From Escherichia phage AidaStucki_Bas93, in the sequence record PQ850593.1: a stretch of 64,000 bases of DNA. One strand, given 5' to 3'. The notes under the pieces are model-generated. The model did not search any database, was not told the DNA's origin, and was given only the letters and a program-made list of their open reading frames with translations. Both the position numbers and the translations under genes were made by a program. Shown here piece after piece: positions 368 through 54,708 of this stretch (position 1 is the stretch's first letter; every line of letters begins with the position of its first letter).

Positions 368-1429
368 ATGGCTAATCCAACTTTATTTGTATCGTATGAC
401 CAGAATGGTAAAAAACTTTCTTTTGCTAACTGGATTTCTGTTCTGTCCCCTCAGGATACCCCGTTCGTATCTATGACCGGTAAAGAGTCTATCAACCAGA
501 CTATCTTTAGCTGGCAGACCGATGCACTGGCAAGCGTTGACGGTAATAACGCACACGTCGAAGGCTCTCGTGCTGAAGACGGCGAAATGAAACCGACTGT
601 TATCAAATCTAACGTTACTCAGATTCTGCGTAAGGTTGTTCGTGTTTCTGATACTGCTAACACCACCGCTAACTACGGTCGTGGTCGTGAACTGATGTAT
701 CAGCTGGAGAAGAAAGGTAAAGAGATCAAGCGTGACCTCGAGAAAATCCTTCTGTCCGGTCAGGCTCGTACCGATGTTCTGGCTGACCAATACCTGACTA
801 ACTCCGCAACTGATCCTGCAGCTGTTGGTCTGAACGACACCCACGCAGCTCGTAAGACTGGTGCTTTCCAGTTCCTGTGTGCACACAACGGTGTTTCTGC
901 TGGTGTTGTTAAGAAAGAAAATGGCCCTGCTGATCCGGATACTGGTGCAGTAACTGTTAAAGTTGCACAGAATGCTTCTAACCCGACCACTAACGTTGGT
1001 TTTGATGAAGCTGATATCTTTGATATGACTCTGCAACTGTACACTGCTGGTTCTGAAGCAGATATCATCATGATCAACCCTGCTCATGCTAAGATCTTCG
1101 CTGGTCTGCAAGAAAACACTCAGGGTTCACGTAAGCGTATCTTTGAGAACACCAAGCAGTTCATCTACGAAGTTAACAGCATCACTGACCCGCTGGGCCA
1201 GAACTACAAAATCATCGTTAACCGTTGGATGCCTACCGATGCAGTTTACTTCTTCCGTAGCGCTGACTGGACTCAGATGGTCCTGCGTGCTCCGAAACGT
1301 ACTGAACTGGCAAAAGATGGTTCTTATGAGAAGTGGATGATTGAAATGGAAGTTGGTCTGCGTCACCGCAACCCTTATGCTTCCGGAGTTCTGTTCACTG
1401 CTGCGGGAAAGTTGGATCCGCAACAGTAG
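368..1429 (+). CDS. major capsid protein
   Basis: 353-aa ORF with strong SD (taGGAGctaacataacATG); sequence has the look of HK97-fold podophage capsid proteins; followed by a frameshift extension and a strong terminator, as expected for a highly expressed capsid gene. Confidence 0.7.
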   Translation: MANPTLFVSYDQNGKKLSFANWISVLSPQDTPFVSMTGKESINQTIFSWQTDALASVDGNNAHVEGSRAEDGEMKPTVIKSNVTQILRKVVRVSDTANTTANYGRGRELMYQLEKKGKEIKRDLEKILLSGQARTDVLADQYLTNSATDPAAVGLNDTHAARKTGAFQFLCAHNGVSAGVVKKENGPADPDTGAVTVKVAQNASNPTTNVGFDEADIFDMTLQLYTAGSEADIIMINPAHAKIFAGLQENTQGSRKRIFENTKQFIYEVNSITDPLGQNYKIIVNRWMPTDAVYFFRSADWTQMVLRAPKRTELAKDGSYEKWMIEMEVGLRHRNPYASGVLFTAAGKLDPQQ

Positions 1430-1947
1430 ACAGTGTGACTGTTAGCCCTGCGTCTGTAGAAAGTCTAGAGACAGGGGCTACTCAGCAGTTTACTGCAAGC
1501 GCTGAGAAGAGTGACGGCTCTACCGAAACAACTGGCTTTACTTGGTCAGTAACAGGAGGCGGTTCTATCACTCAGTCTGGTTTGTATACTGCTCCGAGTG
1601 CGGCTCAATCCACTGATGTATCCATTACTGCGACTTTAGAGGGTGTTTCTGGTACAGCAACCATTTCTGAAATTGTTGATCCTGCCCCTACTATTGTAGC
1701 TAAGGGTCCAATTACAGGTAAAACTGGTGGTTCTTCCACTAACTTCACTACCATGTTTACTGTAACTAATTCTACTGCTGCGGATTACACGTTTGTTGTA
1801 ACCCCTGCAGAAGCTGGTACAGTAAGCGCTGCTGGTGCGTTAACCTTAGATGATGCTGCAAGTGGCGAAGTTACTGTTCAAGCAAGTTTGACAGCTGACC
1901 CGTCCATCAATGCAACATGCACTTTTACTGGTGTAACACCTGCTTAA
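1405..1947 (+). CDS. Ig-like (BIG2-type) C-terminal capsid extension, translated in -1 frame after slippage at G_GGA_AAG (1405-1411)
   Basis: The -1 frame is open from 1345 to 1947 and overlaps the last 28 codons of the capsid ORF; heptamer GGGAAAG lies in the XXXYYYZ register of the capsid frame; product is Thr/Ser/Gly-rich with an Ig-like pattern (TQQFTASA...TWSVTGGGSIT). Confidence 0.5.
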   Translation, partial: GKVGSATVDSVTVSPASVESLETGATQQFTASAEKSDGSTETTGFTWSVTGGGSITQSGLYTAPSAAQSTDVSITATLEGVSGTATISEIVDPAPTIVAKGPITGKTGGSSTNFTTMFTVTNSTAADYTFVVTPAEAGTVSAAGALTLDDAASGEVTVQASLTADPSINATCTFTGVTPA

Positions 1948-1954
1948 AACTAGA

Positions 1955-1978
1955 CCCTGCCTTCGGGCGGGGTTTTTT
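1955..1978 (+). terminator. rho-independent terminator after capsid gene
   Basis: Hairpin CCCTGCC-TTCG-GGCGGGG followed by TTTTTT. Confidence 0.7.
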
Positions 1979-2048
1979 CGTTTTAAGACCTATACAAGCC
2001 AGCGTGTAATGTATATTCTTTGTCTACATATAACAAGGAGGACAACCT

Positions 2049-2801
2049 ATGGCAATGCCAGATGTTCAATACCCCATCAATACCTATGGGTGGCTAAAGA
2101 AGGCCGTGGCCCTCTGGGCAGATAGGGACGATGACGAATTTGTTAATCAAATTCCAAACTTTATTAACTTTGCAGAGAAAGAGATTTATCGTAACTTACG
2201 TATCCCTCCTCTGGAAAAAGAAGTGTACTTAGATATTAAAGATGGAGTAGCTTACATTCCTCCTGATTACTTAGAAGCTCAATGGATGATGAGAGCCAAA
2301 GATGGTACAATCTTCCAAGTAACATCTCCTGAAGAGATTAGCTATCGTAGACAGCATGGAACAATTAACCCATCTCATTGGAATAACCAACCTGTTAACT
2401 TTGCTCGTTTCGGTAGTCGTTTCATTTTCTACCCTAGCATCGAAGCAGACACTCCGTACTATCCTGATGATGGAAGTCCTTTGATTCCAGCAGAAAACTC
2501 AGTAATTCTTAGTTATTATGCAGACCCACCGGAATTTCATGAAGATACAGATACCAGTGCTATCCTTACTATTGCACCAGAACTTCTTCTGTATTTCACT
2601 CTACGTCATGCTTGCTTGTTTGTTCAAGATGATAATGGAGTTCAGAAATGGTCAGCATTAGGGAAAGCTATCCTTGATGAAATGGTAGAACAGAATAAGA
2701 AACAAGAGTACTCAGGTTCACCTATCGCAATTCCGAATAACATGACTCGACTTCAGAGCAGCTTGCCTGATATTTATGGTATTCGTACTTCTCGTGTATA
2801 A
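2049..2801 (+). CDS. hypothetical virion protein
   Basis: 250-aa ORF in the structural block with SD (AAGGAGGacaacctATG); no recognisable motif. Confidence 0.5.
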   Translation: MAMPDVQYPINTYGWLKKAVALWADRDDDEFVNQIPNFINFAEKEIYRNLRIPPLEKEVYLDIKDGVAYIPPDYLEAQWMMRAKDGTIFQVTSPEEISYRRQHGTINPSHWNNQPVNFARFGSRFIFYPSIEADTPYYPDDGSPLIPAENSVILSYYADPPEFHEDTDTSAILTIAPELLLYFTLRHACLFVQDDNGVQKWSALGKAILDEMVEQNKKQEYSGSPIAIPNNMTRLQSSLPDIYGIRTSRV

Positions 2802-2810
2802 GGAGATAAT

Positions 2811-5369
2811 ATGATCGTTTATAATAACCAAGCACCTGATGCAGTGAATAACGTTGGGCAGTTTGGTGCTACTGAAGGCTCTATCGGAGCTTACAAGCAA
2901 GCGGCAGAATATGCAGCTGATTCTAAGTATTGGTCACTGTTGGCAGAGGCTAAGTTTGGTACAGTTGATGACTTGATTGCTCAGGTTGAGATTCTATACA
3001 AACAAGGTGTTCTATTAAGAGAAGATATTGAAGACTTAAAACAAGACTTCATTGCACAAGATGCTCGTTTGATGAACCTCATTGCTCAAACTAACGCAGC
3101 TGTAGCTGATGCAAATAATGCAGTTGCTCTGATTAATCAGAAACTTGTAGAAGTTCAGAATCAACTCGACGTTCTGTTGGGAATGTCTGTTGACGTAACT
3201 ACACTTCCTCCGGGAACTCCGGCTACTGGCTCTTTTAATCCGAACACTGGTGTAATCTCTCTGGGTATCCCAGAAGGTGATCCCGGAAAGGATGGTTCTG
3301 TTACTGACCTATCTGCTGCTCCTACCGGTACACCGGAGCTGGGGGACATCGGTTTCTATGTTGACAAAGATGATAACATTGTTCACAAAACAACTCTCGA
3401 AGATATTGCAAACCTGATCCCATCTGTTCGTTCTGTTTCAGTTAACGATGGCCCTGCGCTTGATGGTGAAGTTGCTCTTACACTCAACAAAGAGACGGTA
3501 GGTCTTGGGAACGTTTTGAACGTGGCTCAGTACAGCCGCCAAGAGATTAATGATAAGTTTGACAAAACAACTAAAACCTACCAATCGAAAGCCGAAGCTG
3601 ATGCGGATGCTCAATACCGACAGGTAGGAGAAAAGGTTTTGGTGTGGGACTCAACGAAGTATGAATTCTATACTGTTGCAGCGAATAAAACCCTTACTCC
3701 GGTTAAAACAGAAGGTCGTATCCTAACTGTTAACTCCCGTGCTCCTGATTCAACTGGTAACATCGATATCGTAATCCCAACAGGAAACCCATCTTTGTAT
3801 TTAGGGGAGATGGTAATGTTCCCTTATGACCCAGCTAAAGCTGTCTCCTATCCGGGCATTCTTCCTGCGGACGGTCGTTTGGTGTCAAAAGAATCTGCTT
3901 TGGATTTAGGCCCATCCCTTATCAGTGGACAACTCCCTGTTGTTTCTGAAACAGAGTGGCAAGCTGGTGCTAAGCAGTATTTCTCTTGGGGTAAATTAGC
4001 CGATGGCATCACTGATGCAGATTCTACTAACTATATCAATATCCGTCTTCCTGATTGGACAGGCGGTGAGGCTATTCGATCCCCTGATTCTGTAAAAGAT
4101 AGTGCATATAAAGGTAATGTTCAAAGTCAGGTCCCTTATGTAGTCACTGTAAATAACCAAGCTCCTGATGAGATTACAGGTAACGTCAATATCTCCAGAT
4201 CTATCTTAGGTGCTGCTGCTGCTGGTGCAAACTCTGATATAACATCTCTCGCAGGGCTTACAACAGCGCTTTCTGTCACTCAGGGTGGAACAGGTGCAAA
4301 GAATTCCAATGATGCTAAGGTAAATTTAGATTTAGACAGAATAGAGCAAGGTTCTGGAGAGACTAAGATCCTATCTCCAAATAAAGAAACCTACATGTTT
4401 GTTGATAATGACGGGTGGGGTTGTTACCGTACCACGGCTGGGTTGGTCGGTACTGTAGCTTTGTCAGTTGAGAGAGGGGGCACTGGAGCAACAGATGTTG
4501 CTAGTGCAAGAGATAATCTAGGACTTAAATCTCTTTCTACATTAGATATTGTTCCAGTAACAAAAGGTGGTACAGGTGCTAGTGATGCTGCCGGTGCAAG
4601 GTTTAATTTGGGGTTGGGAAATGTTTCTACTCTGGACAACGTACCAATCGCTAGTGGTGGTACAGGTGCTAGTGATGCTGCCGGTGCCCGAAGCAACCTC
4701 GGAGCGCTGAGTAACACTCCAGCAAACACAGGTGCAGGTAATACTGGTGCGCGAGTCCAACATGCCACCGGAAGAGGTCTGTTTACTTTAGACATGTTTA
4801 ACTGCTACTGGTATATGCAGCCAGAGGATACTAACTTCTGGGTTGCCCACGGTGTGTCATATGCAGGGCCTAATGGCGAAGCCTCAGAGTATGGTCGTAT
4901 ATCTTACGCAATAAAGATTGCAGATGGAACAACAAAATATGTCCATTGTCTTACAAACAAAAACACCATCATTGATACAGGCGGATTTATCAAAGCGGCA
5001 TCTCCGGTAGTTAACATTTATGCCAACGGTCGGTATGAAACGAACGATGAGTCTGAGGGGGTTAGTGTCATCCGGCAGGGTATTGGTGAATATCTGATTA
5101 CCGGTTGCCTCGGTCTTAACTCTGATGCAAGATGGGGTGGGGTGGATGGGGGGTTTGAAATCCCAACAGATCGCAACAAGCAACCTAGGATTTGGCTGGA
5201 CTATGAGGTTAAAGAAGATGGTTCTATTTTAGTTAAAACCTATCACAGAACTCACCCAACCTCTCCAGTTTTTGCTAGAAACGAGATAGAAGGTTTTTCT
5301 GATGGGGACCCTATTGATATTCCAAGTGATGCTTTTATCTCAGTTCGTGTAGAGATGCCAGCTGAGTAA
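2811..5369 (+). CDS. tail fibre protein with collagen-like GGTGA repeats
   Basis: 852 aa; repeated GGTGA(S/T)DAAGAR.NLGL motifs typical of phage fibre proteins; N-terminal coiled-coil region. Confidence 0.65.
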   Translation: MIVYNNQAPDAVNNVGQFGATEGSIGAYKQAAEYAADSKYWSLLAEAKFGTVDDLIAQVEILYKQGVLLREDIEDLKQDFIAQDARLMNLIAQTNAAVADANNAVALINQKLVEVQNQLDVLLGMSVDVTTLPPGTPATGSFNPNTGVISLGIPEGDPGKDGSVTDLSAAPTGTPELGDIGFYVDKDDNIVHKTTLEDIANLIPSVRSVSVNDGPALDGEVALTLNKETVGLGNVLNVAQYSRQEINDKFDKTTKTYQSKAEADADAQYRQVGEKVLVWDSTKYEFYTVAANKTLTPVKTEGRILTVNSRAPDSTGNIDIVIPTGNPSLYLGEMVMFPYDPAKAVSYPGILPADGRLVSKESALDLGPSLISGQLPVVSETEWQAGAKQYFSWGKLADGITDADSTNYINIRLPDWTGGEAIRSPDSVKDSAYKGNVQSQVPYVVTVNNQAPDEITGNVNISRSILGAAAAGANSDITSLAGLTTALSVTQGGTGAKNSNDAKVNLDLDRIEQGSGETKILSPNKETYMFVDNDGWGCYRTTAGLVGTVALSVERGGTGATDVASARDNLGLKSLSTLDIVPVTKGGTGASDAAGARFNLGLGNVSTLDNVPIASGGTGASDAAGARSNLGALSNTPANTGAGNTGARVQHATGRGLFTLDMFNCYWYMQPEDTNFWVAHGVSYAGPNGEASEYGRISYAIKIADGTTKYVHCLTNKNTIIDTGGFIKAASPVVNIYANGRYETNDESEGVSVIRQGIGEYLITGCLGLNSDARWGGVDGGFEIPTDRNKQPRIWLDYEVKEDGSILVKTYHRTHPTSPVFARNEIEGFSDGDPIDIPSDAFISVRVEMPAE
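4566..4684 (+). repeat. perfect 32-bp direct repeat inside the tail fibre gene
   Basis: ggtggtacaggtgctagtgatgctgccggtgc occurs at 4566-4597 and 4653-4684, encoding the repeated GGTGASDAAGA peptide. Confidence 0.6.
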
Positions 5370-54604: not shown

Positions 54605-54708
54605 AAGAGCTTCTAGCGAGGATGACAGGGTTCGAACCTGCATACTCCAATTACTTCTTTAACGACCGCTTAGAAGGCGGGGAAGATACATCCTCGCTAG
54701 AAGCTCTT
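54605..54708. repeat. 20-bp perfect inverted repeat enclosing a 64-bp structured core
   Basis: AAGAGCTTCTAGCGAGGATG (54605-54624) is the exact reverse complement of 54689-54708; the core holds two short hairpins including the palindromic GGTTCGAACC. Confidence 0.6.

Follow-up and report, generated by a model that had tools for sequence, protein, structure and literature searches.

The capsid frameshift of coliphage phiEco32 was reportedly published in 2008, by Savalia, and the further publications on this group of phages concern SU10 (2014), Privateer (2021) and YF01 (2023). Phage YF01 and other Kuravirus-like phages make two forms of the capsid protein by slippage at the sequence GGGAAAG, which adds an Ig-like domain to the longer form, and phage LAMP is included in the table of group members (PMC9965538). 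The slip site has been described in SU10 "as in phage phiEco32" (PMC4281155), and Privateer possesses the same heptamer, two capsid bands in SDS-PAGE and a minor form that was detected by mass spectrometry (PMC7881722); its RefSeq record contains a joined CDS. In these Kuravirus and Privateervirus systems (phiEco32 gp11/gp12, YF01 gp8, Privateer gp005/gp006), as in the DNA analyzed here, a homologous capsid gene carries GGGAAAG at the homologous position, and the Ig-like extension in the -1 frame is followed by a terminator. The extension is variable within the group, comprising 178 aa at our locus, contributing to 892-aa isoforms in YF01 and Paul, and consisting of an I-set and a Big_2 domain in Privateer. 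The linker also differs, reading KLDPQQ-stop and VGSATVD in LAMP, Bas92 and the DNA analyzed here, and KVAA-stop and GGGVTVD elsewhere in the group.

Ig-like extensions delivered by frameshifting are recurrent on phage capsids, with examples in T3, A2 and Listeria phages (PMC5009743, a review). In the 10A/10B pairs of T3 and T7, as at our locus, a -1 frameshift lies near the end of the capsid gene, and the long form amounts to about 10% (PMC5009743, PMC9965538). Both differ from our locus in capsid sequence family and in heptamer, which in T7 is G_GUU_UUC, and T7 frameshifting relies on sequence over 200 nt further downstream (PMC5009743). The initial annotation of the locus invoked T7 gp10B; the analogy is apt as regards a frameshifted minor capsid form, but T3 10A/10B is the closer parallel, since of the two extensions only that of T3 is Ig-like (PMC5009743).

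By the window we mean the whole 64,000-nucleotide stretch of Escherichia phage AidaStucki_Bas93 that was analyzed (PQ850593.1). A sequence search with its bases 300-2050 matched 125 phage records, led by Escherichia phages LAMP and JacquesWildberger_Bas92 with 98.7% identity, while phiEco32, SU10 and other Kuraviruses came next with 94-96%; by sequence similarity, the window is a Kuravirus genome. The feature described here is the already published frameshift of the phiEco32/SU10-type (Kuravirus) coliphages, LAMP included, and its initial identification was correct, not new. The major capsid protein gene extends from 368 to 1429 on the plus strand, as do all frameshift features described below, and is preceded by the end of a scaffolding gene; an ORF for an SU10-type adaptor (2049..2801) lies 3' of the capsid region. 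The ORF listing confirms the annotated end at 1429, with a TAG stop at 1427-1429. The zero-frame product, a 353-aa HK97-fold protein, belongs to the SU10_MCP family (Pfam E 6e-78, 262.7 bits against a cut-off of 24.1) and is near-identical to the solved SU10 major head protein gp9 (7z45; E 1e-227, residues 1-349). Elsewhere in the window, at 54617-54695 on the minus strand, an Rfam tRNA match lies barely at threshold (29.7 against 29 bits) and has no ARAGORN call; LAMP-like phages are listed with one tRNA in published tables (PMC9965538).

Near the 3' end of the capsid gene, GGGAAAG occupies positions 1405..1411. The GGA codon starts at 1406 (368 + 3 x 346), so that the sequence is read as G_GGA_AAG, a slippery heptamer whose X_XXY_YYZ register matches the capsid frame, and its AAG is the sixth codon before the capsid stop; the register arithmetic agrees with the annotated position. 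The -1 frame is open from 1345 to 1947 and runs 172 codons past the zero-frame stop. As annotated, it has no start codon or SD of its own at its beginning, the earliest ATG, GTG or TTG being a GTG at 1435, upstream of which no SD-like motif was found. The part that would be read after slippage, 1411..1947, comprises 178 codons and a TAA stop, and no start codon of its own precedes 1435. Bare GGGAAAG is not enriched in the window (5 occurrences against 7.5 expected), and the significance of the site therefore rests on its register, position and conservation. An in-register X_XXA_AAG is expected by chance about 0.004 times in the 27-codon overlap of the two frames. Among the 55 in-register heptamers found in window ORFs of at least 100 aa (73 ORFs), the capsid site is the sole genuine case that enters a long -1 frame, defined as at least 50 codons. 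The heptamer of the lambda G/GT frameshift is likewise G_GGA_AAG, but that system serves a tail assembly chaperone rather than a capsid protein and its product lies outside the virion. Among the -1 motifs whose efficiency has been determined in E. coli, G_GGA_AAG ranks in the top three (PMC4066793). The 3' end of the capsid gene carries all the sequence-level requirements for a programmed -1 frameshift.

The calculated product of slippage is a protein of 526 aa and 55.7 kDa, close to the roughly 55-kDa variant anticipated by the initial annotation, and the short form is 353 aa and 39.0 kDa. The predicted junction reads ...FTAAGK|VGSATVDSVTVSPASV..., and Thr, Ala, Ser and Gly are abundant in the 178-aa extension. 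Because trypsin would cleave exactly at the junction Lys, the predicted tryptic peptide VGSATVDSVTVSPASVESLETGATQQFTASAEK, whose first eight residues are encoded 5' of GTG 1435, is diagnostic for the long form. Digestion with chymotrypsin or Glu-C is predicted to yield a peptide that spans the junction, ...FTAAGKVGSATVD..., and LDPQQ would identify the short form.

The extension had been annotated as a 170-aa Ig-like domain. The Ig-like fold is borne out, but the length is 178 aa and the model indicates two tandem domains rather than one. The first (approximately residues 6-87 of the extension; 1426..1671) is Big_2-like by AlphaFold2 and Foldseek; its Pfam match (PF02368, residues 6-82) scores 18.6 bits, under the cut-off of 22.8. 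The homologue L005 passes this cut-off with 28.3 bits, and homologues P0004 and P0007 also carry PF02368. The second (approximately residues 92-178; 1684..1944) is a beta-sandwich by AlphaFold2 and Foldseek that has no Pfam match and for which an hhalign comparison with Big_2 domains gave a probability of just 20%. The AlphaFold2 model of the extension, built from a 31-sequence alignment, is all-beta with two beta-sandwich domains (pLDDT 96.7, pTM 0.77), and the strands of domain 2 (94-176) have pLDDT above 95; a single-sequence run reached only pLDDT 48.8 and was unusable. In Foldseek the top match is to the tandem Big_2 domains of LigA (8gyr; E 4e-11, TM 0.54), and invasin, pairs of NCAM Ig domains and the SU10 nozzle protein, through its Ig-like domains, are matched as well. 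A sequence search of the PDB gave at best a marginal match (E 0.03). The model and these two-domain matches thus argue for two Ig-like domains instead of one. A database search with the extension returned 33 homologues, and in none of the 33 is a fusion of about 526 aa recorded. In homologues P0004, P0008-P0010, P0013 and P0014 the two domains are separated by an extra Big_2 domain, or a third domain follows at the C-terminus. Judged from such sequences, the extension appears to be modular.

A separate "Ig domain containing protein" is annotated in the records of LAMP, phiEco32 and ShigP1 and in RefSeq records, and Siborova et al. considered that gp10 of SU10 might be a minor capsid protein. 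Both would fit an independent gene that starts at GTG 1435 and encodes a free 170-aa Ig-like decoration protein, bound to the capsid non-covalently. We regard this reading as highly improbable. Besides the lack of an SD-like motif upstream, the GTG itself is lost in three homologous loci, where it is replaced by ATA (L005) or GTA (L006 and L007), and the first in-frame start codons of these loci fall at residues 34-47, inside domain 1. In Privateer the extension has no start codon until residue 61. The Big_2 match begins at residue 6 of the extension, and GTG 1435 corresponds to residue 9, further downstream. The residues encoded 5' of the GTG (TVD S/T) are conserved as codons of the -1 frame. 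Finally, the separate annotations are automatic gene calls with inconsistent starts. Gene callers begin the homologous ORFs at four internal Met residues (MTVSPA, MASLLT, MSDGST and MYTAPS), and these differing positions indicate that the extension ORF has no conserved start.

Conservation of the heptamer also favors translation of the extension as a continuation of the capsid protein. The motif is invariant in eight Kuravirus loci and is present in the two Privateervirus loci, Privateer and vB_CsaP_009. A close relative that kept the extension ORF and had lost the slip site would have spoken for an independent gene; we found none, since all eight Kuravirus loci keep the heptamer, seven of them together with the extension and SU10 being the exception. 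Between the heptamer and the capsid stop the linker is variable among Kuraviruses, and this variation includes a 3-nt indel that preserves both frames.

We also considered elements that might stimulate slippage. The initial annotation had pointed to positions 1412-1480 as a place for a stimulatory structure, and none is evident there. This segment folds at -24.4 kcal/mol (z -2.45), but the first 52 nt after the heptamer alone are no better than shuffles (z -0.37). The two predicted RNA hairpins (1429..1479) have their starts 17 and 32 nt downstream of the heptamer, a spacing too long for a canonical stimulator, and what they do is uncertain. In the window we found no convincing hairpin or pseudoknot at the canonical 5-9 nt downstream of the heptamer and no SD-like element 10-14 nt upstream of it. 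A stimulator is not obligatory for -1 frameshifting, and the lack of a convincing one 5-9 nt downstream suggests that efficiency may be low. In a consensus fold of the eight Kuraviruses, a long hairpin appears about 20 nt past the heptamer; it has three compensatory pairs, its covariation term is only -0.89, and we do not claim so weak a signal as a stimulator. The hairpin of Mirzaei et al., which places the heptamer in its loop, was not adopted because its 3' arm (GCGGCGG) is replaced in the lineage of the window. A GGAG at 1385-1388, 16 nt upstream of the heptamer, occurs only in the LAMP/Bas92/window lineage (among the aligned loci only in the window, LAMP sharing the 30 bases upstream of the heptamer), and is GGCG or GGTG in other Kuraviruses; from its sequence, it could be a weak SD-like stimulator. 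Downstream of the extension, an intrinsic terminator (1952..1985) closes the capsid transcription unit. Its hairpin, a ten-pair stem with six G-C pairs and a UUCG loop, lies at 1952-1975 and is followed by a T-run, only slightly displaced from the 1955-1978 initially given, and SU10 has an annotated terminator at the same place.

SU10, the exception among the Kuraviruses, has retained the heptamer, yet in its -1 frame a stop follows 11 codons after the slip. The SU10 record (L002, KM044272) has a one-base insertion at 1609-1660 relative to all other Kuraviruses, reading GACACTGTCTACTG where these read GACAGTGTGACTG. This insertion shifts the Ig ORF into the zero frame of the capsid gene, where TAA and TAG stops precede it. 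From the sequence, it could reflect either a genuine loss or a mistake in sequencing. SU10 has been described as the only member of the group without the long form (PMC9965538), and its capsids, with 715 subunits per head, are normal and have no extra density (Siborova et al.), so that under laboratory conditions the extension can be dispensed with. The "9+10" fusion of SU10 was listed with 50.3% coverage and 22 peptides, and gp9 with 78.1% and 23 peptides (Table 2 of PMC4281155). By our own arithmetic these values correspond to about 264 residues of the approximately 525-aa fusion and about 275 residues of the 352-aa short form. As the former number does not exceed the latter, all of the "9+10" peptides could be shared with the short form, and the fusion is not proven by them.

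The state of SU10, in which the heptamer persists, the Ig ORF is unreachable and the capsids are normal, raises the prospect that in the window too the slip site is an evolutionary leftover and that the long form is not meaningfully made or assembled; the lack of a strong stimulator nearby would accord with this. We assign it a very slim chance. The extension is intact in the window, shares 92% identity with its homologues from many phages and is predicted to fold with very high confidence (pLDDT 96.7). It is open in every examined Kuravirus locus save SU10, whose loss is unique in the group (PMC9965538).

In more distant relatives with 42-66% capsid identity, those that have an extension also have a slip motif in register. 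Privateer and vB_CsaP_009 (57% capsid identity) have G_GGA_AAG directly before a TAA stop and a 169-aa extension of I-set and Big_2 domains; PJNS034 (42%) has C_CCA_AAA in register and an Ig-like extension of 132 aa; and the Aeromonas-type loci (L009-L012, including LAh_8; 58-66%) have G_GUA_AAG and Ig-like extensions of 90-171 aa. Vp_R1, GAP52 gp010 and 7-11 gp008 (56-59%) have no motif and no extension, the terminator following directly. Such joint presence and joint absence of motif and extension is the mark of a frameshift site in use. Together with the literature, it supports the initial proposal that slippage would generate a minor capsid species with a C-terminal domain. A different arrangement is found in Salmonella phage 7-11 (L018, 1982-4758) and GAP52 (L019, 2992-5129), each of which has two tandem capsid paralogues. 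As in the window, 7-11 gp008/gp009 and GAP52 gp010/gp011 provide short and long forms of the same capsid family, with C-terminal Big_2 domains on the long form. Unlike the window, they do so from two paralogous genes: the short gene lacks a slip motif and a terminator comes directly after it, and the second paralogue (7-11 gp009, GAP52 gp011; 56% capsid identity) carries its Big_2 extension in frame, also with no motif. These paralogue pairs are an alternative route to a two-form capsid, and the capsid family as a whole alternates among four slip motifs, paralogue duplication and the absence of a long form.

Several of these loci have individual features. The Aeromonas-type heptamer (approximately 4412-4418 in L009-L012) is non-canonical, combining A_AAG with G_GU as in T7 gene 10, and in L009-L011 a GC-rich hairpin begins 6 nt 3' of it; by sequence, the site looks like an unannotated frameshift. 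In Aeromonas phage LAh_8 (L021) the extension ORF is annotated as a separate 74-aa "tail protein". In Escherichia phage PJNS034 (L020) the motif lies at 3885-3891, 3 nt before the capsid stop, and a strong hairpin (z -4.7) lies 15 nt 3' of it; the two genes are annotated separately. An IMG/VR contig of 124.9 kb (L014, 4421-4555) has A_AAA_AAG 3 nt before the capsid stop, followed by a Pro-, Val- and Lys-rich -1 extension of just 42 aa, which lacks an Ig domain and precedes a terminator; this extension may be decayed or of a different kind.

The same long protein could arise if RNA polymerase, rather than the ribosome, slipped at GGGAAAG. Transcriptional slippage requires long homopolymer runs, typically of seven or more A or T, whereas this site offers only G3 and A3, and the dependence on X_XXY_YYZ register across relatives is a signature of ribosomal slippage. 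We consider the probability of a transcriptional frameshift to be close to nil. Ribosomal -1 slippage at G_GGA_AAG, yielding a minority 526-aa capsid protein that bears two Ig-like domains and is co-assembled with the short form, is very probably what occurs in this phage. A minority of the ribosomes on the capsid mRNA would shift back by one base at 1405-1411, the tRNAs re-pairing from GGA and AAG to GGG and AAA. These ribosomes would bypass the TAG at 1427 and translate 178 more codons, and the resulting protein would consist of capsid residues 1-348 followed by the two tandem Ig-like domains. It would be present in the capsid at low copy number beside the 353-aa form, with its Ig-like domains presumably on the outside of the prolate head. 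The efficiency of slippage is likely to be a few percent. For the lambda G/GT frameshift a value of about 3.5% has been cited (PMC9965538), and applied to the 715 subunits of an SU10 head, a lambda-like efficiency would give roughly 25 long ones.

Weak binding to carbohydrates or mucus is the role discussed for Ig-like domains on phage capsids (PMC9965538 and the paper on Kuravirus ES17), and those described here would probably serve as weak adhesins for glycans or surfaces. Mucin and heparan sulfate are both bound by ES17, which its authors credit to the tail fibre alone, and in its passages on Ig-like domains and the capsid the ES17 paper makes no mention of a capsid extension. The frameshift-delivered domains might constitute a capsid-borne adhesin of gut Kuraviruses for glycans or mucus and contribute to the mucin binding of ES17, a notion that we hold as speculative and rather unlikely.

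The frameshift mechanism itself is textbook, and the main value of the finding lies in annotation. With few exceptions, database records of these phages present the one frameshifted capsid gene as two, for a "major head protein" and an "Ig domain containing protein", and the covalent place of the Ig-like domains in the capsid is thereby hidden. The varied routes taken by this capsid family represent a natural experiment in dosing a capsid surface domain. Furthermore, Kuraviruses are under development for gut decolonisation, so that a capsid adhesin, if real, could matter in practice.
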